A DNA stretch of 10,603 nucleotides, from assembly GCA_040752415.1 (NCBI GenBank), contig JBFMGU010000329.1, positions 1 through 10,603 on the forward strand, given 5' to 3'. Every line of letters begins with the position of its first letter. The first letter of the stretch is position 1. Shown piece after piece: positions 1 to 10,603 of the stretch. Made by a program: the position numbers and the translations under genes. The notes under the pieces were generated by a model that saw nothing but the letters and a program-made list of their open reading frames with translations, did no database searches and was not told the origin of the DNA. The stretch comes from Myxococcota bacterium. GTDB taxonomy: Bacteria > Myxococcota > JACRCW01.

Positions 1-1
1 T

Positions 2-181
2 CGTCGGAGACTCTGCGTGCCGGCGTCTCCGCCCCATGAGATGCCCGCGGCCGGCACTTTGGAATCCAAAGGTGCGGGCGCCGCTGCACCTTCTCACCGC
101 TCGCCGGCACCTGGGGGTCACGTCGGAGACTCTGCGTGCCGGCGTCTCCGCCCCATGAGATGCGCGCGGCCGGCACTTTGG
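2..181. repeat. 61-bp direct repeat (2..62 and 121..181) containing a GTGCCGGC...GCCGGCAC hairpin
   Basis: cgtcggagactctgcgtgccggcgtctccgccccatgagatgc(c/g)cgcggccggcactttgg occurs twice, 119 bp apart, with one mismatch. Confidence 0.9.
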
Positions 182-558: not shown

Positions 559-1548
559 CACGCCCAGCTTCTCCCGGAGCGCGGCGGCGCCCAATCCCGG
601 TGAGCCGCGTCCCTCCGCCTCCTTCACCAACGCAACAATCGCCGCGTTCACCGTGGCTCGGGTCCCCACCTTTTCCGCCAAGCGCACCACCTCGCCATTG
701 AGCGCGTCGATCTCCGTCTTGCGCCCCCGCGCGAGATCGTCCCACATCGACGAGCGCGCCTGCGGATCCACGGTCAACATGGGCCGCGCGACGAGGGAGA
801 ACACCGCGTCCGGCAGCGTGAGCACCCAAGGAACCAGGCGCGGCGGCAGCGGCACGTCGAGACGGGGTTGGATCCCGGCAGCGGACACGGCGTCCAGGCC
901 CTCCCGCACGCACGCGGCCATGACGCGCCGGTAGTCGCGCTGCGAGAGCATCTCCTTGATGGGGATGTTGGCCAGCGCATTCACCGGGTTGTTGAGATTC
1001 ACCAACAGCTTGCCCCACAGCACGCCGCGCATGTCGTCGTGGGCTTCAATCTCGAGGCCCGCGTGGGACAGCGCGCGCACCAGCGGCATCACCGCTTCCA
1101 CCCGCTCGACGGCAAGCCGGCCCGAGGTGCCCTGGTGGAAATGCGCACCCGCGCGTCGCAGCACGTTGAAGGGGACCATGCCGGCCAGCACCCGTTGCTG
1201 GGGCAGCGCGGCCCGCAGCAGCTCCGGGTTGTTCACGCCGTTCTGGAAGCTGACCACCAGCGCGTCTCGTCGGAGCACGCCGGCCAGCGCCGCACCCGCG
1301 CTCGCCGTGTCACCACCCTTCACCGTCACCAGCACCACGTCACAATCCGCCAGCGCGGTGGGCGCAGTGGCCACTTCCAGGCGCAATGTCTGGTCAAAGC
1401 CGCGGTAGTCGGTGAGGTGCATTCCGTGCTGCGCCACCTCGTCGGCGAGCGACTGTCGTCCCACCAGCACCACCGGCACGCCACTGTGCTGCAGGCGACC
1501 GCCCAGGTAGCAACCGATGGCGCCGGCGCCCATGATTCCCACTTTCAT
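541..1548 (-). CDS. panE: 2-dehydropantoate 2-reductase (ketopantoate reductase, PanE/ApbA family), 335 aa
   Basis: N-terminal Rossmann motif MKVGIMGAGAIG; family motifs VTVK, FQNGV, WGKLLVNLNN (catalytic Lys) and SSMWDDLARGRKTEIDALNG (catalytic Glu). Start trimmed to ATG 1548, which overlaps the upstream stop (ATGA). Confidence 0.9.
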   Translation of the reverse strand: MKVGIMGAGAIGCYLGGRLQHSGVPVVLVGRQSLADEVAQHGMHLTDYRGFDQTLRLEVATAPTALADCDVVLVTVKGGDTASAGAALAGVLRRDALVVSFQNGVNNPELLRAALPQQRVLAGMVPFNVLRRAGAHFHQGTSGRLAVERVEAVMPLVRALSHAGLEIEAHDDMRGVLWGKLLVNLNNPVNALANIPIKEMLSQRDYRRVMAACVREGLDAVSAAGIQPRLDVPLPPRLVPWVLTLPDAVFSLVARPMLTVDPQARSSMWDDLARGRKTEIDALNGEVVRLAEKVGTRATVNAAIVALVKEAEGRGSPGLGAAALREKLGVYSGFR

Positions 1549-2534
1549 CGTCGAGAACCCTCCACCAGCGCGTCCGCAATCCGCTCCGCAATGGGGAAAC
1601 CCAGGTCCCGTTGCAGCCAGCCCCATTCCCCCGCGGGATTGACCTCCAGGAACACGTGACGACCTTCCGGGTCCACAATGAAGTCCAACGCCGCGGACAC
1701 CAGGCCCAGTCGCCGCATCAGGGCCAGCACGCGCTCCGTCTCGTCGTCAGGCAGCGTGTAGGGTGTCCAATCAATGCCTTCCCCGGGCTGGGTGAGCCGC
1801 CAGTCCACGCGACCGCGCCGGGACCCGCGCGTGTCGATGGCACCGGTGAACACCTCGCTCCCCACGACGACAACGCGCAGCTCACAGCGCTTCCCGACGG
1901 TGGCCTGGAAGATCTGCGGCGCGTAGCGCACGTCGTCGATGGCAGCGAGATCCGCCTCGGTGACCTCGGTGGTATAGAAGAATTCGCTCGTGCCCTGCAT
2001 GCTGACGGTGAGCACGCCCAGCAGTTTCGTGACCATGCGCCCGCCCAGCTCGGCGTGGAAGGCGCGGACCTCGTCGGGGTTGTTGGTGACGAGCGTGGGT
2101 GGAAGGGTGAAGCCCAGCTCCTGCGCCACGCGCAGCTGCAGCAGCTTGGATTCCGCGCGGGTGTTGGCCTGCAGCGTGTTCACCCAGAACGCGCCATCCA
2201 TCAACGACAGCGCATCCACCAGCGCGGTGCGTGATTCCCGACGACAATGCTGCACGTAGCGCGGGTCCATCGTCTCCGGCATGGCGCCGGGCCAGACGCG
2301 ACGGTTCCACACCGCGGGCACCTCCCGTAACGCGACGGCCCCGCGCGGCGTCCTGAGCACCATCTCCTCCCGACCCGAGCGGAACGAGACGCTGAGCGCG
2401 AGCTCGACGGGAAAACGGTCCGTGTCCACGCGCAACGCCGGCACCCCGCGGGAGACCAGCGCCTGCTCGACGAGGTCGATGGTGTAGTAGTCGCCGCTGT
2501 GGGTCAGCAGCAGGATGGGAGCGGACGTGGTCAC
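1545..2534 (-). CDS. mvdC: Microviridin-type ATP-grasp peptide maturase, MdnB/MvdC (macrolactam ligase)-like, 329 aa
   Basis: ILLLTHSGDYYTIDLV, DTDRFP, VWNRRVW, AESKLLQLRVA-GF-LPPTLVTNNP, MVTKLL, ELRVVVVG, VDWR, FLEVNPAGEWGWLQRDLGFPIA. The THSGD start and GEWG end recall MdnB/MvdC rather than MdnC/MvdD (TFSxD..., GEFFW). Lies next to a PFFARFL precursor. GTG start. Confidence 0.88.
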   Translation of the reverse strand: MTTSAPILLLTHSGDYYTIDLVEQALVSRGVPALRVDTDRFPVELALSVSFRSGREEMVLRTPRGAVALREVPAVWNRRVWPGAMPETMDPRYVQHCRRESRTALVDALSLMDGAFWVNTLQANTRAESKLLQLRVAQELGFTLPPTLVTNNPDEVRAFHAELGGRMVTKLLGVLTVSMQGTSEFFYTTEVTEADLAAIDDVRYAPQIFQATVGKRCELRVVVVGSEVFTGAIDTRGSRRGRVDWRLTQPGEGIDWTPYTLPDDETERVLALMRRLGLVSAALDFIVDPEGRHVFLEVNPAGEWGWLQRDLGFPIAERIADALVEGSRR

Positions 2535-2546
2535 GGGAGGAGGAAG

Positions 2547-2575
2547 CCCGCCCCACGCAGCTCACGTGAGGCGGG
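2547..2575 (-). promoter_or_regulatory. Intergenic GC-rich stem-loop between precursor and ligase genes (mRNA-stabilising hairpin or weak terminator)
   Basis: Minus-strand CCCGCCTCACG-tgagctg-CGTGGGGCGGG forms an 11-bp stem with one G-U pair, followed by a pyrimidine run (cttcctcctccc) but no U-tract. Confidence 0.5.
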
Positions 2576-2590
2576 TCGGCAGGGACCTGG

Positions 2591-4330
2591 TCAGCCCGGT
2601 CCGCCGCCGTCCTCGTTGTCGGAGGGATACTTCTCGGTGAACAGGTTGCCGCCGCGACCGGGGCCGCCCGCGCCGTCCTCGTTGTCGGACGGGAACTTCA
2701 TGGTGACCATCATGCCACCGCCGTCGCCACCGCCGTCCTCGTTGTCGGAGGGATACTTCGCGGTGGTCACCTCACCGACACCGCCGCCGGCATCCTCGTT
2801 GTCGGAGGGATAACGCTCCGTGACGATGTCGCCGATGGTGCCGCCACCAGCGTCCTCGCCGTCGGAGGGAGCCTTCATGGTGACCATCATGCCACCACCG
2901 TCGCCGGCGTCCTCGTTGTCGGACGGGTAACGCTCGGTCACGGCCCCGCCGCCACCGACGCCACCCGCGCCACCGCCGCCACCCGCGTCCTCGTTGTCGG
3001 AGGGATAACGCTCCGTGACGATGTCACCGATGGTGCCGCCACCACCGTCCTCGTTGTCGGATGGCGCCTTCATGGTGACCATCACGCCACCGCCGTCACC
3101 CGCGTCCTCGTTGTCGGAGGGATAGCGCTCGGTGACCGCTCCGCCGCCCATGCGCGGCACCGGCTCGCCGCCACCGTCCTCGTTGTCGGAGGGGAACTTG
3201 CGGGTCATCACCACTCCGCCCCCGTCGCCGCCGCCGTCCTCGTTGTCGGAGGGGGCCTTCATGGTGACCATCACGCCACCGCCACCCTCACCCGCGCCGC
3301 CATCCTCGTTGTCGGAGGGGAACTTGCGGGTCATCACCACGCCGCCACCGCCGTTGTCGGCACCGCCGTCCTCGGCGTCGGAGGGGAACTTCTTGGTGAC
3401 CGCGCCCACGTTCTGACCGGTCTCACCCACGGGCCCGTCCTCGTTGTCGGAGGGGTACTTCAGCGTGACCGCCCCGACGCCACCCTCGGCGCCGTCCTCG
3501 TTGTCGGAGGGCGCCTTCATGGTGACCATCATGCCGCCGCCCTCGCCGGGGCGCTTGCTGCCGCCGCCATCCTCGTTGTCGGACGGGTACTTCATGGTCA
3601 CCATGCGACCCACCTCGCCGCGCGCAACCTGGCCACGGTTCTGTCCCTCGAGGAAGCGCGCGAAGAACGGCTTCACCGTGTTCTCGTCGCCACCGAGCTG
3701 CTGCAGGGTCAGCTTCTCCGCGCCCTTGGGGTTGGCCGCGGTGTGGATCTGCTGCGCCGCGGTGAACGCCTTGGAGAACTCCTGCTGCGCCTGCGCGCCC
3801 TCGGGGCTGCCCTTCAGCTTCTGCTGCGCGACGGCCAGCGTCTGGTTCGCCACGTTCTGCATGAGCTGGGTGCGGTCGGTGAGCAGGCGTTCCACCACCT
3901 GGGCCCGCGGGTGCTCCGGCGCGTGCATCTGGAACGCCTTGCTGGTCTTGCGCAGCGCATCCAGCACGGCGGTCTGCGACTCCAGCGTGTGATCCGCGGC
4001 CTTCAACGCCGTGATCAGCTCCTTCTCGATGGCGCGCACCTCACGCGGCACGCTCTGCACCGCACCGGCCTTCTGCGCCGCCACGCGCGCGCCCACCGCG
4101 CCCGTCCCACCTTCCCGTCGCGCGGTCTGCTGCGGCGCCTTGGGGGTCTCCTTGCGACCCGCGGGAGCCTTCTTCTCGAACGCGTCCGACTTCTTCGCCG
4201 AGGCCTTGGCCTGCTGCGCCTTGCTGGTCTGCTTGGCGGGGGCCTTGGCGGTGCTCTTCTGGACCGTCGACTCCGACGGACGCTTGCTGCCCGCGCTCTG
4301 CTTGGTGGAATTGCGGCGGATGGAAGTCAT
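2591..4330 (-). CDS. mdnA: Giant multi-core microviridin/marinostatin-family graspetide precursor, 579 aa, 16 cores
   Basis: PFFARFL at aa 221-227 (nt 3650..3670), followed by 16 TxK/R-Y/F/A-PSD-x-ED units separated by Gly-rich linkers. GGAG Shine-Dalgarno 6 nt before ATG 4330. Adjacent ATP-grasp ligase. Confidence 0.92.
   Translation of the reverse strand: MTSIRRNSTKQSAGSKRPSESTVQKSTAKAPAKQTSKAQQAKASAKKSDAFEKKAPAGRKETPKAPQQTARREGGTGAVGARVAAQKAGAVQSVPREVRAIEKELITALKAADHTLESQTAVLDALRKTSKAFQMHAPEHPRAQVVERLLTDRTQLMQNVANQTLAVAQQKLKGSPEGAQAQQEFSKAFTAAQQIHTAANPKGAEKLTLQQLGGDENTVKPFFARFLEGQNRGQVARGEVGRMVTMKYPSDNEDGGGSKRPGEGGGMMVTMKAPSDNEDGAEGGVGAVTLKYPSDNEDGPVGETGQNVGAVTKKFPSDAEDGGADNGGGGVVMTRKFPSDNEDGGAGEGGGGVMVTMKAPSDNEDGGGDGGGVVMTRKFPSDNEDGGGEPVPRMGGGAVTERYPSDNEDAGDGGGVMVTMKAPSDNEDGGGGTIGDIVTERYPSDNEDAGGGGGAGGVGGGGAVTERYPSDNEDAGDGGGMMVTMKAPSDGEDAGGGTIGDIVTERYPSDNEDAGGGVGEVTTAKYPSDNEDGGGDGGGMMVTMKFPSDNEDGAGGPGRGGNLFTEKYPSDNEDGGGPG
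2609..3598 (-). repeat. In-frame tandem array of 16 core-peptide coding repeats
   Basis: (g/a)tcctcgttgtcgga-type unit (SDNED codons) recurs every ~57-78 bp, always in frame. First core 3569..3598, last core 2609..2638. Confidence 0.93.
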
Positions 4331-4468
4331 GTCAGGCTCCGGGTCTTGGGGACGTCGTGGAAGTCCTGCGTACCCGCATGCGCGCGGGTCGGAACAGGCC
4401 TTTGCGTAGCCTCGGAAACCGCGGGAAGCAATGGCCCCGAGCTGGACGCGCCGCTACCATGACACCCT

Positions 4469-4831
4469 GTGGCTTCCCCCAAGCGTCAGCGCGTCCTCGC
4501 CATCATCGCCACCGACCGCACCTTCGAGCGCGCGGAATATCGCGGTCGCGAGGTGTGGCAGGGGCGCTGCCTGCACTGCAACGCGTATCTCCTCGTCGAG
4601 CTGAGCGGGGAGGCCATCAGCCGCGCCACCATTGAGCACATCATCCCGCGCGTGCACGGCGGCACCGACGCGCCGGAGAACCTGGGCCTGGCCTGCGCGC
4701 GCTGCAACCAGGGCAAGGGGATGCGGCATGACCGCAACTTCAAGCGCGACCCGCGCGTCCAGGAGATGGTGGAGCGGCTGCTGCAACGTCGTCGTGAGCG
4801 CTGGCGCGACCCGGAGGAGGTGACGTCCTGA
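4469..4831 (+). CDS. HNH endonuclease family protein, 120 aa
   Basis: CLHC...ATIEHIIPRVHGGTDAPENLGLACARCNQGKG: CxxC zinc ligands flanking an H-N-N HNH motif. Confidence 0.88.
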   Translation: MASPKRQRVLAIIATDRTFERAEYRGREVWQGRCLHCNAYLLVELSGEAISRATIEHIIPRVHGGTDAPENLGLACARCNQGKGMRHDRNFKRDPRVQEMVERLLQRRRERWRDPEEVTS

Positions 4832-5355: not shown

Positions 5356-5412
5356 CGTCGTCAGGCACGGGTGATTGACAGGGGAACGCCACCGCCGCAA
5401 CGTGCGCGCCGC

Positions 5413-5667
5413 ATGACGGGGATCACCCTGCTGGGCCTGGTGGCCGGCACGCTGACGACGGTGGCATTCATCCCGCAGGTGCTCCACGTCTACCGGACGC
5501 GCAGCACGCGGGACATCTCGCTGGGCATGTTCGCCATCTTCAGCACCGGCGTGCTGCTCTGGCTCATCTACGGCGTCAGCATCCATGACGTGCCGGTGGT
5601 GGTGGCCAATGCCATCACGCTGGTGTTGGCGCTGATCATCCTGGCGTTCAAGCTCAAGTACGGCTGA
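5413..5667 (+). CDS. SemiSWEET (PQ-loop/MtN3) sugar transporter, 84 aa
   Basis: Three hydrophobic helices with LTTVAFIPQV (PQ motif), TRSTRDISLGM, LWLIYG and VVVANAI signatures. Start trimmed to ATG 5413. Confidence 0.9.
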   Translation: MTGITLLGLVAGTLTTVAFIPQVLHVYRTRSTRDISLGMFAIFSTGVLLWLIYGVSIHDVPVVVANAITLVLALIILAFKLKYG

Positions 5668-8600
5668 CAACGGCATCCGCGCCCAGCGCCTTCTCCAGCA
5701 CGCGCAGCGCGGTCCGCACCGCGTCGCTCTTGTCCGCCACCGAGGGCGCGCCCCCCTCGCCGGGAGCCCGCGCGCGGGTGATGCGCTTGCGCACCGCGGC
5801 CTTGAGGCGCTTCTCGTCGTCGCGGCGGCCTTCCTCGGCGGCCTGCCGGGCCAACATCAGCTCCCCGTGTCCCTCCTGCACATCCAGCACGGCCAGGCCC
5901 ATCTTGTCGTCGACGTCGGTGAGCTGGCGCCGGGCCGCGTCCCAGGCGGCGCGTGCCTCGTCGTGCTTGCCCAGCAGCGCTTCCACCGCGCCGAACGCCG
6001 TGAGGAACAACCCCTCGAAGCGACGGTCGCCCACCTGGCGCAGCGTGGTGACGGCCTTCTTGATGCGGTGGCGCGCGTCCTCCAGCTGGCCCTGTTCCAG
6101 GTGCAACGTGGCCAGGAAGCCCAGCGCCACCGCCTCGGTGCGACGATCCTGTGCCTCGCGCGCCAACAGGATCGCGCGGTGCAGGCGTTCCTCGGCGTCG
6201 TCGAGCTTGCCCATCTCCTGCTCCAGCAGGGCCAGGTTGCCGAGCTGGATGGCCTCGGTACGCAGGTCGCCCACGCCGCGCAGGATCTCAAGGGCCAGCT
6301 CGAAGTGGGAGCGCGCCTCGTCGAGCCTTCCCTGCGAGCGGTGCAGGTTGCCCAGGTTGCCCACCACCAGGCCCACGTAGCGCTCGTCGTTGACGTTGCG
6401 CAGGTGCTCCAGGGCTTCGGTGTAGCAGCGTTGCGCGTCGTCGATGCGCCCCTGCTGTCGACGGATGATGCCCAGGTCACCCTGGAGGCGACCCATGAGC
6501 CGCGCGTCGCCCGCGCCCCGCGCCCACTCCAGCGCCCTGGTGTCATCCGCCTCCGCCTCGGGGAGACGTCCCTGCATGAGCAGCGCCCAGCCGCGCACCT
6601 TGAGGACGCTGGCGAGCATGGCGGGCTCCACGTTGGCCTGCTTGGCCGCCGTCAGCGCCTGGGTGAGGAGGGAGAGATAGAGCGCAAAGGGTCCACGCGT
6701 GGCCAGCACGGAATCCACCGCCAGCATGACGCGCAGCGCCTGGGTCACATTCTCCGTCGTCACGGAGGCGGCCAGCGCGCGGTGGAAGACGGCGAGCAGG
6801 TTCTCCATCTCCAGGGAGAGCCTCTGCCGCACCTCGGCGCCCTGCGGGCCGTCGGCCTGGTCGGCGTATTGGCTGCCCAGCTTCAGGTAGTAGGCCGCGT
6901 GCCGGGCCCACACGCCGTCCTTCTGCCCCGACTGCACAAGCTTCTCCGCGGCGTACTCGCGGATGGACTCGTACATGAAGAAGCGCACCTCGCCGTCGTC
7001 GGTGTCGTTGGCGCGCAGCAGGGATTTCTCCCGCAGGGCTTGCATGACGTCGAGGACCCAGGGTGCGTCGGGCACGTCGGCGAGGTCCACCACGGCTTCG
7101 GCGGCCTCCAGGTCGAAGCCACCGCGGAACACCGAGCAGCTCGCCAGCGCGCGCTGTTCCCACGGCTGCAGCATGTTCCACGACCAATCAATGGCCCCGC
7201 GCAGCGTCTTCTGGCGACTGTTGGCATTGCGCGCACCGCCGGTGAGCAGGTCGAACCGACGGGGCAGCCGCTCCAGCAGCTTGGCCGCGCTCATCACGCC
7301 CATGCGCGCCGCCGCCAGCTCGATGGCCAGGGGCAGCCCGTCCAGCTGCCGCACCATCTCCGCCACAACGGGCGCATCCTGCGGCGTGAGCTCGTACTGC
7401 GGACGCACCAGCTTGGCGCGCTCCACGAACAACTGCACCGCCTCGCTGCCTTCCGCGTCTTCTCCCTCGCCGGGAACGGCCAGCGGGGCCAGCTCCAGCG
7501 GTCGCTCGCCCGGGACGCGCAGCAATTCGCGCGAGCTGACCAGGAAGCGCGCTTCCGGCGCAATGGTCATCCAGCGCTTCACCGTCGTGGCGGCGTGCTG
7601 CACCACCTGCTCGAAGTTGTCCAGGATGAGCAACACCTTGCCGCGCGCGGCCAGCGCGTGACCGAGCTGCAGCACGTTGTCGGCGCTGGTCTTGCCCAAC
7701 GTGAGCGGGACCTGCAGCGTCTGCGCCACGGCCGCGGTGATGTCGTCGACGGAGGTGGCCTCGCTGAGGTCGCAGAACCACACGCCGCCGGAGAGCGGGG
7801 CGCCGTAGAGGCTGAGGTGCTTGTGGCCAAAGCGGATGGCCATGCGGGTCTTCCCCGTCCCGGCCGGGCCCAGCAACGTGACGAGCCGCTCCCCCGCCTC
7901 CATGAGCTGGTGCAGCGCCTCCAGGTCCAGCGCGCGCCCCACGAAGCCTGGCGTCTCCGTCGGAAGATTGGTCTTGCGCTCCGGCGCGCTGTAGCCGCTC
8001 TCGGAGAGCTGGGTGATGGCGGAGAACACGCCTGGCTCGTCGACGGTGGGCTCGTCGACGGGCGGCGGCGGAAGCTCACGCGGCTGTTCCTGCGGCACCA
8101 CCGGACCACGCACGCTGACACCCGGTCCACTGTTGCCCTCGACGGGCGGGGGGCGCACCGGCATGCGTTCCCGGGAGGTGGGGCGGTTCTCCGGACGTCG
8201 CCGGGCCAGCAGCTCCTCGACGGCCGGCATGGCGGAGGCCGCGGCGGGCAACTGCTTCATGAGCTGCGCCTCCTGGGCCTGCACGTCGGTGAAGAGGGAG
8301 CGCACGAACCCGCCCACGCGCGCGGGTGAGTGCATGATTCCCGCCTCCGCCATGAACGACTCCAACGCCGCCACCAGCTCCGCACAGGAGGCGAAACGCT
8401 TCTCCTTCTCCCGCGCCAACGCAGTCATCACAACGTCTTCCAGCGCGCGCGGATAGTCCGGCTTCAACGACGTGGGCCGCGGGATCTCCCCTTCGATCAC
8501 CGCGTGCAGGGCGAGGATCTCCGTCTCCCGCTTGAACAGGCGGTGCAGGGTGGTGATCTCGTAGAGGATGATGCCGAGCGCGAACTGGTCGGTGCGGTGG

Positions 8601-9205
8601 TCGATCTCGTAGCCCGCCGCCTGCTCCGGCGACATGTAGCTGACCTTGCCCTTGAGCACGCCGCTGCGCGTCTCGATGGCCTGGCCCCGCGCCTTGGCGA
8701 TGCCGAAGTCCACCACCTTCGTGGTGCCCTCGTAGGTGACAATGACGTTCTGCGGGGAGATGTCGCGGTGGATGATGCCCAGCGGCTCACCCTGGAGGTT
8801 GGTCTTGGTATGCGCGTAGTGCAGACCGCTGGCGGCGTCGACGACCATCTGCAGCGCATGCGCCAGGGGGAACGGCTCCCCGCGCTTGTTGCAGCGGTTC
8901 ATGATGCGCGCAATGTCCTGCCCCTGCAGGTACTCCATGACGAGGAAGAACTGGCCGTGGTCCTCCCCCACGTCGAGCACGGCCACCACGTTGGCGTGGC
9001 GCAGGTCCGCGGCCACCCGGGCCTCCGCGAACAGCATGCGGACGAAGTCCTCGTTCTCGGCGAGGTGCGGATGGATGCGCTTGACCACCACCAGCTTCTC
9101 GAACCCGTCGAGACCCACCTGGCGCGCCAGGAACACCTCGGCCATGCCGCCTTGGGCCAGGCGACGCAACACGGTGTACTTGCCCGCCAGGGTGGTGCCT
9201 TCCAT
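5654..9205 (-). CDS. Ser/Thr protein kinase - STAND (NB-ARC-like) ATPase - TPR repeat protein, 1183 aa
   Basis: Kinase motifs LAQGGMAEV, VVVKRI, HRDISPQN, DFGIAK, YMSPEQ, TDQFALG. Pro-rich linker. Walker A GPAGTGKT, Walker B LLILDNFEQ and GLPLAIELAA (GLPL motif). C-terminal ~40-aa TPR-like repeats (GDLGIIRRQQGR, GNLGNLHRSQGR, GNLALLEQEMGK). 3' end overlaps the SemiSWEET gene by 14 bp. Confidence 0.92.
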   Translation of the reverse strand: MEGTTLAGKYTVLRRLAQGGMAEVFLARQVGLDGFEKLVVVKRIHPHLAENEDFVRMLFAEARVAADLRHANVVAVLDVGEDHGQFFLVMEYLQGQDIARIMNRCNKRGEPFPLAHALQMVVDAASGLHYAHTKTNLQGEPLGIIHRDISPQNVIVTYEGTTKVVDFGIAKARGQAIETRSGVLKGKVSYMSPEQAAGYEIDHRTDQFALGIILYEITTLHRLFKRETEILALHAVIEGEIPRPTSLKPDYPRALEDVVMTALAREKEKRFASCAELVAALESFMAEAGIMHSPARVGGFVRSLFTDVQAQEAQLMKQLPAAASAMPAVEELLARRRPENRPTSRERMPVRPPPVEGNSGPGVSVRGPVVPQEQPRELPPPPVDEPTVDEPGVFSAITQLSESGYSAPERKTNLPTETPGFVGRALDLEALHQLMEAGERLVTLLGPAGTGKTRMAIRFGHKHLSLYGAPLSGGVWFCDLSEATSVDDITAAVAQTLQVPLTLGKTSADNVLQLGHALAARGKVLLILDNFEQVVQHAATTVKRWMTIAPEARFLVSSRELLRVPGERPLELAPLAVPGEGEDAEGSEAVQLFVERAKLVRPQYELTPQDAPVVAEMVRQLDGLPLAIELAAARMGVMSAAKLLERLPRRFDLLTGGARNANSRQKTLRGAIDWSWNMLQPWEQRALASCSVFRGGFDLEAAEAVVDLADVPDAPWVLDVMQALREKSLLRANDTDDGEVRFFMYESIREYAAEKLVQSGQKDGVWARHAAYYLKLGSQYADQADGPQGAEVRQRLSLEMENLLAVFHRALAASVTTENVTQALRVMLAVDSVLATRGPFALYLSLLTQALTAAKQANVEPAMLASVLKVRGWALLMQGRLPEAEADDTRALEWARGAGDARLMGRLQGDLGIIRRQQGRIDDAQRCYTEALEHLRNVNDERYVGLVVGNLGNLHRSQGRLDEARSHFELALEILRGVGDLRTEAIQLGNLALLEQEMGKLDDAEERLHRAILLAREAQDRRTEAVALGFLATLHLEQGQLEDARHRIKKAVTTLRQVGDRRFEGLFLTAFGAVEALLGKHDEARAAWDAARRQLTDVDDKMGLAVLDVQEGHGELMLARQAAEEGRRDDEKRLKAAVRKRITRARAPGEGGAPSVADKSDAVRTALRVLEKALGADAVVSRT

Positions 9206-9333: not shown

Positions 9334-10518
9334 TCAGACGGTGACGAAGGGGACGCTGGGCGTCTCGTGCAGGCGGGATTCCTGCTGGTAGCTGCGGAAG
9401 TAGTGGAAGATGTAGCCCATGCGCTCGTCGTACTTCGACCAGTCCGAGGCGTCGCTGTGCTGGGTGGACTGCGGGTCCTGGCCAAAGCGACGCGCCTCCG
9501 CGTTCATCTCCGGCACGGCGTTGAAGCTGGTGAGCTCGAAGGGCGCGGCCTTCTGCACGTCCTGCCCCAGCACCAGGGATTGGCCGGGGATGTTGAGGCG
9601 CATCTGGTCGGTGACGTTGTCGTTGTAGCTCATGCCGGGCATGGCGCCCTTCACGAAGCGGTCCGCCACCTGCTGCTCATGCTTGGCGACGAGGAAGTTG
9701 CCCTGGAACATCAGCTCCGCGCGCCGGTTCTCCGCCTCGTAGCCCTTGGCGTCCTTCAGCGTCATGGCCTCGTGGTAGGAGCGGAACGCGTTCTGCAGGT
9801 CCGGCTTCCCCTCGAGCGCGGGCTGCTTCACGAAGTCGTCGATCATCTGCTGACCGCGCGCGGGGTCCTTCCTCCACGACGTGTCATTCTGGAAGGTGTT
9901 GATGAAGCGGCTGAAGTGCGGCGCGATGTCGCCGAAGATGGCCTGGTTGCCCTTGGCCACGGCGTCCGCGGCGTCGTCCTTCTTCCAGTTCTGCACCGGC
10001 TTGGTGACGAAGTTGACGAGGCCACCCACCGGGGAGTCACTGCCGGGCAGCTTGACGTCGACCTCCTTGCGGATGACGCCACCGGCGGTGTTGCTGGCCC
10101 ACTTGCCGAACGTGAGCCAGTTGGCGTTGTCCTTCCCCACCAGGCTGGCCATGCCCTCGCTCAGCTCATGGTAGCCGCGCGTGATGGCGTAGTTGCGCTG
10201 CACCGGGTCCTTCATGTCCGCCACGCGACGCACGTGCGCCTCGTCGAGATACGCGCTCTGGAATCTGGGCTCCGCGCGGGGGCCGCCCACGTCGGTGGCC
10301 AGCCGCTGCTGCAGCATCTGGGCCCGCATGTCATGACGGGACACGGTGCGGGAGTCCTGCTGGCGCTGCGGATCCACGGGAGCGCGTGCGGCGGGCTCGG
10401 TGGTGCGGGCCGCGGGCTGTGAGGTGGTGGTCTGCGCCGGCTGGGCGGGCTTCGCCGTCGACGTGGAGGTGGTGGCCTGGGTTTGAACCGGTCGTGATCC
10501 GCCGCCGTCAACGCGCAT
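9334..10518 (-). CDS. Hypothetical protein, DUF2515-like domain after a low-complexity T/S/P/Q/A N-terminus, 394 aa
   Basis: Long ORF with strong GC3 codon pattern. Motifs RNYAITRGY, ANWLTFGKWAS, GNQAIFGDI, HEQ and DWSKYDERMGYI resemble DUF2515-type families (from memory, unverified). Start chosen at ATG 10518 (MRVDGGG). Confidence 0.7.
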   Translation of the reverse strand: MRVDGGGSRPVQTQATTSTSTAKPAQPAQTTTSQPAARTTEPAARAPVDPQRQQDSRTVSRHDMRAQMLQQRLATDVGGPRAEPRFQSAYLDEAHVRRVADMKDPVQRNYAITRGYHELSEGMASLVGKDNANWLTFGKWASNTAGGVIRKEVDVKLPGSDSPVGGLVNFVTKPVQNWKKDDAADAVAKGNQAIFGDIAPHFSRFINTFQNDTSWRKDPARGQQMIDDFVKQPALEGKPDLQNAFRSYHEAMTLKDAKGYEAENRRAELMFQGNFLVAKHEQQVADRFVKGAMPGMSYNDNVTDQMRLNIPGQSLVLGQDVQKAAPFELTSFNAVPEMNAEARRFGQDPQSTQHSDASDWSKYDERMGYIFHYFRSYQQESRLHETPSVPFVTV

Positions 10519-10603
10519 GGGTAGCCCCAGAAGCAGGTGCGTCAGTATCGACTCTGGTTCCGGGCCCGTCCACATCCGTCGGACAACTGACGGGTGCGCC
10601 CAT

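Follow-up and report, generated by a model that had tools for sequence, protein, structure and literature searches.

The minus strand of the window (the whole 10,603-nt stretch of DNA that we analysed) carries a gene for a 579-aa protein (2591..4330) which, judged from its sequence, is a multi-core graspetide precursor of the microviridin/marinostatin family. It was recognised from the list of open reading frames and from family profile matches. In the reading that we favour, with a probability of about 0.7, the gene specifies a class-II-like multi-core graspetide: two ligases would cage the cores, and each core would then inhibit serine proteases through the residue after Thr. Because that residue of each caged core would fill the S1 pocket, the array would supply six P1 types (Met, Glu, Arg, Lys, Leu and Ala). 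What was established directly is the anatomy of the sequence, the family to which it belongs, the occurrence of both ligase types in the genome and the conservation of P1 at orthologous positions.

Along the precursor, an N-terminal region is followed by a PFFARFL leader motif, 16 tandem cores and a 4-aa tail, GGPG. The protein matched PF12559 (Inhibitor_I10, Pfam) with an E-value of 7.3e-55 (183.5 bits, cut-off 21) and NF033738 (NCBIfam) with an E-value of 4.1e-72 (238.8 bits, cut-off 26), which bore out the original prediction of a microviridin/marinostatin-type precursor. These two matches, a GC3 of 0.89 in the reading frame and synonymous codon variation at invariant core residues (Thr ACC13/ACG3, Pro CCC12/CCG3/CCA1, Asp GAC13/GAT3) established that the core array is not a chance pattern. 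Plus-strand ORFs over the array (e.g. 2499-2813 and 3132-3416) were rejected as genes, being mirror frames of the repeat, and the family match lies in the minus frame. The leader recognition motif (aa 221-227; 3650..3670, minus strand; located by regular expression) is unique in the 11-Mb genome by the same search, and genome-wide there is no second precursor with PFFARFL or TxKxPSD. In the leader stretch KPFFARFLEGQ (aa 220-230), the columns P221-Q230 are invariant (alignment A1). The PFFARFL motif is described as the ligase-activating helix (PMC7823629, PMC12848669). With one such motif and 16 cores, the gene shows the arrangement of class II, i.e. one leader serving several tandem cores, whether or not GG sites separate them.

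Two regions precede the leader motif. The N-terminus (aa 1-90; 4061..4330, minus strand) is Lys/Ala/Gln-rich, of low complexity and predicted to be disordered (pLDDT 31-52); it could not be aligned with the conserved N-terminal ~100 aa of the homologues (alignment A1). A helical domain (aa ~95-205; 3716..4048, minus strand) was predicted by AlphaFold2 with pLDDT 82-96 and helices at aa 96-111, 116-136, 141-174 and 179-199. Its columns are conserved among the long homologues (alignment A1), and the L016/P0012 precursor is 33% identical to this region over 144 aa. Only 9 representatives out of 1.84 billion matched aa 1-242 at E<=0.001, 6 of which (P0024, P0017, P0004, P0012, P0016 and P0019) are long PF12559 precursors; a word-index search with aa 60-242, in proteins 318-1014 aa long, had no hit at E<=0.001. 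Foldseek comparison of the N-terminal model with the PDB gave nothing at E<=0.001 and generic helical bundles only, so the fold provided no functional lead. No signal peptide was found in the precursor, and a maximum Kyte-Doolittle value of 0.56 over 19 aa indicated that it has no hydrophobic segment.

Counted as 13 aa per core (regular expression ..T.[KR].PSD.ED.), the array occupies aa 243-575 (2606..3604, minus strand). All 16 cores conform to T-x-[K/R]-x-PSD-x-ED and are separated by Gly-rich linkers of 6-13 aa, with GG in 14/15. Measured from the Thr codon in core 1 through the final Asp codon in core 16, the span is exactly the 2609-3598 given in the original prediction, whose tally of the residue flanked by Thr and Lys/Arg (six Met, five Glu, two Arg and one each of Leu, Lys and Ala) was also reproduced exactly by translation and pattern matching. 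The predicted invariance of PSDxED held, with P, S, D, E and D fixed in 16/16 cores (PSDNED x14, PSDAED x1, PSDGED x1). Among the 13 core positions in the window, the variable one has the highest entropy, 2.18 bits; among 420 cores of relatives it reaches 2.86 bits, where T, K, P, S and D have 0-0.17 bits. It is chiefly here that the sixteen copies differ from one another. The residue that follows it is Lys in 12 cores (TxKxPSDxED) and Arg in 4 (TxRxPSDxED, the marinostatin-type variant), and all four Arg cores read T-E-R. Because synonymous differences separate cores of identical peptide, purifying selection appears to be acting on the cores. DNA self-matches of at least 60 nt within the array are at most 81% identical; with repeats so diverged, collapse or expansion during assembly is therefore unlikely. 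A look-up of RNA and DNA sequencing runs covering 2500-4400 listed none.

The variable residue had been described as setting specificity, and the structure of microviridin J bound to trypsin, together with position-5 mutants, places it in the S1 pocket: Arg5 binds Asp189 in S1, Thr4 lies in S2 and Lys6 at S1', and the swaps F5L, F5R, F5Y and F5M are reported to shift specificity among elastase, trypsin, chymotrypsin and subtilisin (PMC7823629). Marinostatin E (ATMRYPSDSDEDGFN) is reported to inhibit chymotrypsin and subtilisin, with no inhibition of trypsin or elastase (PMC10125368). Met at P1, which had been linked to subtilisin, chymotrypsin and elastase, therefore does not simply equal elastase inhibition. 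With this correction, the broader interpretation of the gene as an inhibitor library gained partial support from the family assignment, the S1 residue and the retention of P1 core by core.

Homologues with up to 16 cores are present in Myxococcota and other MAGs. When the window precursor was aligned with four of them, the same P1 was found at 8/14 aligned cores in P0001, 10/14 in P0002, 9/13 in P0004 and 8/10 in P0012; in 10,000 shuffles the mean numbers of matches were 2.0-3.7, and at most 0.0011 of the shuffles reached the observed value, in a MAFFT alignment that uses the P1 residue itself and with four homologues that are mutually related. TER cores aligned with TER cores, and a terminal run (M/L)-E-A-M is common to all five sequences. 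The homologues with conserved Glu positions are only about 47-53% identical. Position-by-position retention is what a maintained specificity panel predicts; because the variable residue, Glu included, is conserved core by core in four homologues, selection keeps a defined panel of P1 residues. P1 also co-varies with P2': Tyr at P2' accompanies Glu in 5/5 window cores and 30/34 cores of relatives, and Ala at P2' accompanies Met in 54/115 cores of relatives. This co-variation, the retention of P1 in distant homologues far above the shuffled expectation and the synonymous changes between identical-peptide cores all argue against neutral drift among redundant repeats, by which the differences at the variable residue would be functionally meaningless. 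Drift would agree with the many residues that engineered microviridins are reported to tolerate at this position (PMC7823629) and with an entropy among relatives (2.86 bits) like that of the two unconstrained positions before Thr (2.98 and 2.86 bits). It was already disfavoured, and we consider it highly improbable.

Five cores, all on the minus strand, have Glu at P1. Four of them have Arg at P1': core 8 (3101..3139) and core 11 (2906..2944), both AVTERYPSDNEDA, and core 10 (2984..3022) and core 13 (2789..2827), both IVTERYPSDNEDA. Core 16 (LFTEKYPSDNEDG; 2606..2644) has Lys at P1' and can be tricyclic. Core 8, without the lactam Lys, aligned with TER cores of P0001 and P0002, and core 11 with those of P0001, P0002 and P0004; the aligned partners of core 10 have L, L, M and E at P1; core 13 aligned with TEK cores in 4/4 homologues, and core 16 had no aligned partner in the four. 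The five Glu cores are not independent of one another: the TER cores belong to a single subfamily, with 32-37 of 39 nt shared, and the TEK core 16 is closest at the DNA level to the TAK core 14 (35 of 39 nt). Because Arg replaces the lactam Lys, the four T-E-R cores can be bicyclic at most, as in marinostatin; a Lys in every core, as in tricyclic microviridins, is not seen here, with Arg in 4/16 cores. The absence of the lactam Lys from four of the five Glu cores had not been remarked on earlier.

The five Glu-P1 cores had been singled out in the original prediction. They are indeed present, but Glu is not peculiar to this gene: it was found at P1 in 18/95 related precursor ORFs, cyanobacterial ones among them, and in 34/420 and 43/347 cores of two overlapping samples of relatives, and it dominates some homologous arrays (8/16 cores in L006, 5/8 in L032 and 5/7 in P0021). 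Residue frequencies in both samples are biased, because the relatives were collected through words shared with the window precursor.

Turkey ovomucoid third domain with Glu placed at P1 strongly inhibits the Glu-specific protease of Streptomyces griseus. The most plausible targets of the Glu cores may likewise be Glu-specific serine endopeptidases, a proposal to which we give a little less than an even chance. The literature searched contained no link between microviridins and glutamyl endopeptidases; Glu-P1 and Met-P1 core motifs were not found in its text, and figures or tables of Ahmed et al. 2017, Zhao et al. 2021 and Ramesh et al. 2021 may show Glu or longer arrays. Motifs of these kinds were absent from the supplement of PMC12848669. 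No Glu-specific protease was found in the precursor neighbourhood. The genome gave 10 S1 protease matches, 4 of them HtrA/DegP-like (NCBIfam) and 6 unnamed. For 4 of the 6 unnamed S1 proteins, no glutamyl endopeptidase appeared among the best 60 solved-structure matches each; the closest of these structures were those of eukaryotic S1A enzymes, namely kallikreins, plasmin, factor D and trypsins.

Alternatively, the Glu cores may be real cages that are not aimed at glutamyl endopeptidases, only the Met, Leu, Arg, Lys and Ala cores being inhibitory. They would then have another target class, act at low pH, or contribute charge or solubility, protection from proteolysis or spacing for the polyprotein. 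Such a role fits the lack of a Glu-specific protease in the neighbourhood and among the four S1 proteases of the organism checked against solved structures, and the lack of a glutamyl endopeptidase link in the literature searched. It also fits the frequency of Gln at the variable position, which in relatives is as common as Glu (45 vs 34 of 420 cores); Glu-specific enzymes accept Gln poorly. An array already very acidic, with 66 Asp+Glu vs 23 Lys+Arg, points in the same direction. However, Glu is kept at orthologous positions in proteins ~47-53% identical, co-varies with Tyr at P2' (30/34) and dominates the arrays of some organisms, and a specific binding partner fits these facts better than a filler role. 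We regard the non-glutamyl alternative as rather unlikely. As for glutamyl endopeptidases as targets, a more far-reaching and equally doubtful version is that the Glu-P1 cages, the bicyclic T-E-R form included, would be an old conserved subclass of natural inhibitors dedicated to these enzymes (V8/GluSGP/Bacillus type). A large-genome, probably predatory bacterium would deploy them in a 16-headed polyprotein to disarm a whole spectrum of proteases secreted by competitors or prey at once, the helical domain letting two ligases work through the array.

A MvdC/MdnB-like ATP-grasp ligase of the lactam-forming type (329 aa; 1545..2534, minus strand; PF21068, E 1.8e-31) lies 56 nt downstream of the precursor gene. 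It scored 365.5 bits with TIGR04185 MvdC (equivalog cut-off 425) vs 267.9 bits with TIGR04184 MvdD, and shares 44-56% identity with the ligase that comes first after the precursor in relatives. A MvdD-like (lactone) ligase is encoded on another contig of the same genome (G000:C232:9595-10587); it scored 394 bits with TIGR04184 MvdD (equivalog cut-off 475) vs 266 bits with MvdC, and shares 57-66% identity with the ligase that comes second in the canonical cassette of relatives with multi-core precursors. Both are full length relative to their NCBIfam models, with scores under the equivalog cut-offs. Formation of the lactones is attributed to MvdD, that of the lactam to MvdC (PMC12848669). Among 82 related loci searched, 61 had a ligase match, and the order precursor, MvdC-like, MvdD-like was found in 56/61; therefore, both ligase types are part of the pathway. 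The MvdD-like gene lies between genes for a HAD hydrolase and a peptidoglycan-binding protein, and the next gene beyond the MvdC-like ligase of the window encodes a ketopantoate reductase. With a ketopantoate reductase on one side and unrelated flanks on the other, a contig break within the cluster was rejected as the sole cause of the ligase split. A repeat (98.9% over 181 nt, same orientation) is common to the end of C232 and the start of the window, so the two contigs may abut, which would put the two ligase genes about 3.7 kb from each other.

This possible junction, the similarity of the C232 ligase to the second ligase of canonical cassettes and the lack in the genome of any other PFFARFL/TxKxPSD precursor as a substrate for a second ligase all weigh against the idea that the adjoining ligase works alone. 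In that case it would make all bonds as a dual-function enzyme, or only part of them, with a ring pattern unlike microviridins, and the MvdD-like gene would serve something else. The position of the latter on another contig among unrelated genes is consistent with this idea, and dual-function ATP-grasp ligases are described in the family (CdnC of chryseoviridin, PMC10125368), but we consider it improbable.

From homology, we infer cyclisation, inhibition and targets of the cores as follows. The two ATP-grasp ligases would be recruited by the one PFFARFL helix, with an unusual helical domain ahead of it. The MvdD-like ligase would form two side-chain esters per core, from Thr to the Asp of PSD and from Ser to the Glu of ED, and the adjoining MvdC-like ligase a Lys-to-terminal-Asp amide in the 12 Lys cores; the four T-E-R cores, without Lys, would remain bicyclic like marinostatin. 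Each caged core would be a substrate-like serine-protease inhibitor with the residue after Thr in the S1 pocket.

No acetyltransferase domain (GNAT MdnD/MvdB) was found among the 8 window ORFs scanned, and no exporter or leader peptidase in the window; C39 peptidase (PF03412) was found neither in the window nor in the 96.8%-complete genome. Atlas look-up of a 413-aa neighbour protein gave scores all <0.9. In seven relatives examined, no conserved peptidase, exporter or acetyltransferase stood beside the three-gene cassette. The absence of C39 peptidase from the genome and of such genes beside the cassette in relatives, the lack of a signal peptide and a helical N-terminal domain kept in long homologues, some of which carry additional domains of 200-500 aa, would all suit an uncut product, i.e. 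a single large inhibitor with many heads, comparable to multi-domain Kazal inhibitors, that exits by lysis or vesicles. Kazal/ovomucoid inhibitors consist of tandem units in which a hypervariable P1 sets specificity, with several proteases addressed per gene product; the analogy is functional only, their fold and chemistry being unrelated (disulfides, no ATP-grasp cross-links). On the other hand, GG is present in 14/15 linkers, a review gives GG as the signal for cutting class II cores apart (PMC7823629), and the characterised family members in the literature covered are small peptides. We view an uncut product as a possibility worth keeping in mind, though not the likelier outcome.

Microviridins are studied as tunable serine-protease inhibitors, and the knob by which they are tuned is known to be the residue after Thr; natural arrays of up to 16 cages with maintained knob residues are seen in this gene and its relatives. 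The gene scales up a known family of natural products considerably: 16 cores far exceed the three of the case examined in vitro, and also the "up to five" of the Ahmed et al. classification, as credited in a review (PMC7823629). Earlier mining limited precursors to 150 aa, and long multi-core precursors were therefore invisible to it; in the supplements of that study, only single-core TMKAPSD and short KYPSDNED precursors resembled the window motifs (PMC8939145). The conserved Glu cages, and Gln in relatives, point to proteases that no characterised microviridin addresses, and the Glu cages open a directly testable way towards a natural scaffold for inhibiting Glu-specific endopeptidases. A 16-core substrate is also a demanding case for a single leader helix guiding distributive ligases.

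AMdnA (all7013, with AMdnC) of Anabaena/Nostoc sp. PCC 7120 likewise has one PFFARFL leader, tandem TxKxPSDx(D/E)(D/E) cores and GG-containing linkers, and its cores differ after Thr (TRK, TLK, TLK; supplement file 2 of PMC8939145). Class II cores are reported to be processed independently of one another by ATP-grasp ligases (PMC5934393). AMdnA has 3 cores, whereas the window precursor has 16, and roughly 20-40 aa precede the leader motif in class II/AMdnA, compared with ~220 aa, helical domain included, in the window. Also unlike AMdnA, the final ring-closing acid of the window cores is Asp, four cores lack the lactam Lys, and the lactone ligase is unlinked. Clusters of class II usually carry a gene for a C39-peptidase membrane/ABC protein, whereas C39 was found neither in the window nor in the genome.

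Marinostatin E (ATMRYPSDSDEDGFN, Algicola sagamiensis) shares T-x-R-Y-PSD, with Arg for the lactam Lys, with the four TERYPSDNED cores of the window. Because of this replacement, marinostatin is an ester-only bicyclic cage, and it still inhibits serine proteases (PMC10125368). It has Met at P1 in a single core, whereas the Arg-type cores of the window have Glu at P1 and stand in one polypeptide with 12 Lys-type cores, and the window also has a lactam ligase gene.

Myxomiditides (myx cluster of a deep-sea Myxococcota MAG), for which protease inhibition was demonstrated, have a PFFxRFx leader, a TxKxPSDx(D/E)(D/E) cage and MvdC-like and MvdD-like ligases, as here (PMC12848669). As described there, their precursors are single-core and have an extra (KxxE)n motif, and the cluster has four ligases including the new MyxF clade; in contrast, the window precursor has no KxxE ahead of the core array, and its ligases are of the two classical types only. 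Chryseoviridin (CdnA3/CdnC, Chryseobacterium gregarium), reported to inhibit chymotrypsin, elastase, thrombin and trypsin (PMC10125368), is a multi-core graspetide with a microviridin-type bicyclic core without lactam, as predicted for the TER cores of the window. As reported, its cluster is from Bacteroidota, its units are far fewer, and its extra rings do not repeat one cage but are ester macrocycles of other kinds.

The precursor gene (2591-4330, minus strand) encodes a protein of 579 aa that matches Pfam Inhibitor_I10 (PF12559; E 7.3e-55 in a profile search) and NCBIfam NF033738, 'microviridin/marinostatin family tricyclic proteinase inhibitor' (E 4.1e-72). It is the only precursor of its type in the genome (11.0 Mb in 520 contigs, 69% G+C), of which the window is one entire contig of 10,603 bases; the leader recognition motif PFFARFL, at aa 221-227, is likewise the sole copy. 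Sixteen repeat units, each matching xxT-x-[K/R]-x-PSD-x-ED-x, span aa 243-575. The linkers are 6-13 aa each, with Gly at 74 of 125 residues and GG in 14 of the 15. Recounting the cores in the translated ORF, we obtained exactly the coordinates of the original prediction and its counts at P1, the residue after Thr (six Met, five Glu, two Arg and one each of Leu, Lys and Ala); P, S, D, E and D of PSD-x-ED were constant in all 16 cores, as it had also claimed. Judged from its sequence, the protein is a class-II-like precursor of the microviridin/marinostatin family, very large and with a predicted mixture of tricyclic and bicyclic cores, further distinguished by an extra helical domain in the leader and a dispersed ligase pair.

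The original prediction took the residue after Thr as the one that sets specificity. This role is established by the microviridin J-trypsin structure, in which Arg5 lies in S1 against Asp189, Thr4 in S2 and Lys6 at S1', and by position-5 variants of microviridin L, whose specificity switches among elastase, trypsin, chymotrypsin and subtilisin (PMC7823629). Among the unit positions in the window, entropy is highest at P1 (2.18 bits); in relatives (420 cores from 95 ORFs) it is 2.86 bits at P1 versus 0-0.17 bits for T, K, P, S and D. We aligned the array with four homologues, 46-53% identical in the best BLASTP segment, and the cores paired one to one. P1 was identical at 8/14, 10/14, 9/13 and 8/10 aligned cores, against means of 2.0-3.7 matches upon shuffling, and the observed value was reached in at most 0.0011 of 10,000 shuffles; two caveats are that P1 itself enters the alignment and that the four homologues are related to each other. 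Cores of identical peptide are separated by synonymous changes. There is also covariation between P1 and the position that follows Lys: Glu occurs with Tyr in 5/5 window cores and 30/34 cores of relatives, and Met with Ala in 54/115. We infer that variation at P1 is not drift. Family membership and the core-by-core conservation of P1 support the proposal that the array is a built-in library of protease inhibitors.

Four of the five Glu cores read T-E-R-Y-PSDNED-A and form one subfamily at the DNA level; the fifth is a TEK (Thr-Glu-Lys) core, closest to the TAK (Thr-Ala-Lys) core. Counted from the N-terminal side, core 8 pairs with TER (Thr-Glu-Arg) in both homologues having a partner, core 11 with TER in all three partner homologues and core 13 with TEK in all four; core 10 has Glu in 1/4 aligned partners and core 16 has no partner in the four-homologue alignment. 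Because the aligned homologue cores carry TER or TEK, this alignment indicates that both Glu at P1 and its pairing with Arg are old and have been maintained. Arg replaces Lys in the TER cores, and a lactam is therefore impossible in them. Their predicted final form is a bicyclic cage resembling marinostatin E (ATMRYPSDSDEDGFN), an inhibitor of chymotrypsin and subtilisin (PMC10125368).

Glu at P1 is not rare in the family. It was found in 34 of 420 cores and 18 of 95 ORFs of relatives (10/26 ORFs having at least five cores and 8/69 with fewer, including Nostocaceae and Microcoleus) and in 43 of 347 cores of long homologues, two samples that overlap and are both biased through shared words. Mostly-Glu arrays occur in the related loci L006 (8/16) and L032 (5/8) and the long homologue P0021 (5/7). 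The general behaviour of canonical inhibitors suggests that Glu in S1 leads to inhibition of glutamyl endopeptidases, and by this analogy we infer that the Glu cores could act on such enzymes. The same genome has ten S1-type protease matches, four of them HtrA-like; no candidate target was found among the four of the other six that were compared with solved structures, and no literature was found on Glu-P1 microviridin motifs or on microviridins against glutamyl endopeptidases. Gln occupied P1 in 45/420 cores of relatives, a variant for which we found no description in the literature surveyed; Gln-rich arrays were seen in loci L007, L013 (for example QLQMQLAALKQQQQQ), L014 and L030.

The related loci came from a scan that took a single genome for each species (80 loci), for which the patterns included KYPSDNED and MKAPSDNE, so that the sample is biased. 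Based on stop-to-stop frames, L006 (a Myxococcaceae MAG) has 16 cores, L008 and L013 have 15 each, and L007, L011 and L020 have 13 each; cyanobacteria and Sorangium loci have 2-4. Searching a word index of 5.8 billion proteins, with lengths limited to 318-1014 aa, we obtained 50 homologues, 48 with a precomputed PF12559 match and reaching 16 cores (P0001, 826 aa). Numbers in the accessible texts are smaller: the classification of Ahmed et al. allows 'up to five' cores (per review PMC7823629), the multi-core case studied in vitro has three (PMC5934393), one large survey took only candidates of <=150 aa (PMC8939145), and a 2025 preprint (PMC12224551) includes 'microviridin' in its list of clusters that are conserved but unknown in Archangium, Cystobacter and Sorangium.

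At the N-terminus, aa 1-90 of the precursor are low-complexity and predicted to be disordered, and aa 95-205 form four helices at high confidence in the predicted structure. This helical domain is kept in long homologues but rare: 9 matches at E<=0.001 among 1.84 billion representatives, six of them long precursors common to the word-index set (P0024, P0017, P0004, P0012, P0016, P0019). A search for structural neighbours gave none that was informative. Within the set P0001, P0002, P0004, P0013, P0016 and P0017, some homologues have ~200 conserved residues inserted after the PFFARFL leader and before core 1, and others a helical-looking extension of 400-500 aa C-terminal to the array; no Pfam domain is on record for either. 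We found no signal peptide or hydrophobic stretch in the precursor, no C39 peptidase in a genome search, and no conserved peptidase, exporter or acetyltransferase adjoining the cassette in seven relatives. A serious alternative is that the product acts without being cut, as one multi-headed inhibitor.

An MvdC-like ATP-grasp ligase of 329 aa (1545-2534), carrying an MvdD pre-ATP-grasp domain, is encoded 56 bases downstream of the precursor gene. Among NCBIfam models it matches MvdC best (365.5 bits versus 267.9 for MvdD, both under the equivalog cut-offs). A second ligase, on contig C232 of the same genome (9595-10587), scores oppositely, with 394 bits for MvdD versus 266 for MvdC. MvdD-type enzymes form the two lactones and MvdC-type enzymes the lactam (PMC12848669). 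We searched 82 loci with both ligases; of the 61 with a match, 56 showed the order precursor, MvdC-like, MvdD-like on one strand. The cassette is split in this genome, because the next gene after the MvdC-like one encodes a ketopantoate reductase, and the MvdD-like gene lies on C232, flanked by genes for a HAD-type hydrolase and a peptidoglycan-binding protein. The longest ORF of the ketopantoate reductase (541-1626) overlaps the ligase ORF by 82 nt (1545-1626); its true start probably lies further downstream.

Short repeats, both direct and inverted, are clustered in 1-560 of the window; they include copies of 61 nt (2-62 and 121-181) and a perfect inverted pair of 39 nt (319-357 / 457-495). 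They are part of an interspersed element that gave 261 BLAST matches, spread over 99 of the genome's contigs. With 96 of these 261 matches no more than 1 kb from a contig end, the element is probably a cause of breaks in the assembly. It is shared by the 3' end of C232 (11585-12007) and the 5' end of the window (1-181), at 98.9% identity over 181 nt in the same orientation. C232 and the window may adjoin one another, but the repeat is present on 99 contigs and the match therefore does not prove adjacency. If they abut, the ligase genes would be ~3.7 kb apart and convergent.

Elsewhere in the window, an ORF of 413 aa (9334-10575, minus strand) is without Pfam or NCBIfam match; its Atlas feature matches, including type III secretion gatekeeper-like clusters, all score <0.9 and serve as leads only, and its Atlas model has a pLDDT of 0.42. 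A protein of 1183 aa (5654-9205, minus strand) combines a Ser/Thr kinase, an AAA/NB-ARC-type NTPase and TPR repeats in a STAND-like signalling architecture. Divergent from the precursor gene is a stand-alone HNH endonuclease of 120 aa (4469-4831, plus strand), whose HNH region resembles IscB/Cas9 (NF040563, E 1.3e-10, far below the cut-off). A small membrane protein of 98 aa, of PQ-loop / SemiSWEET type (5371-5667, plus strand), is encoded next to a cupin gene.
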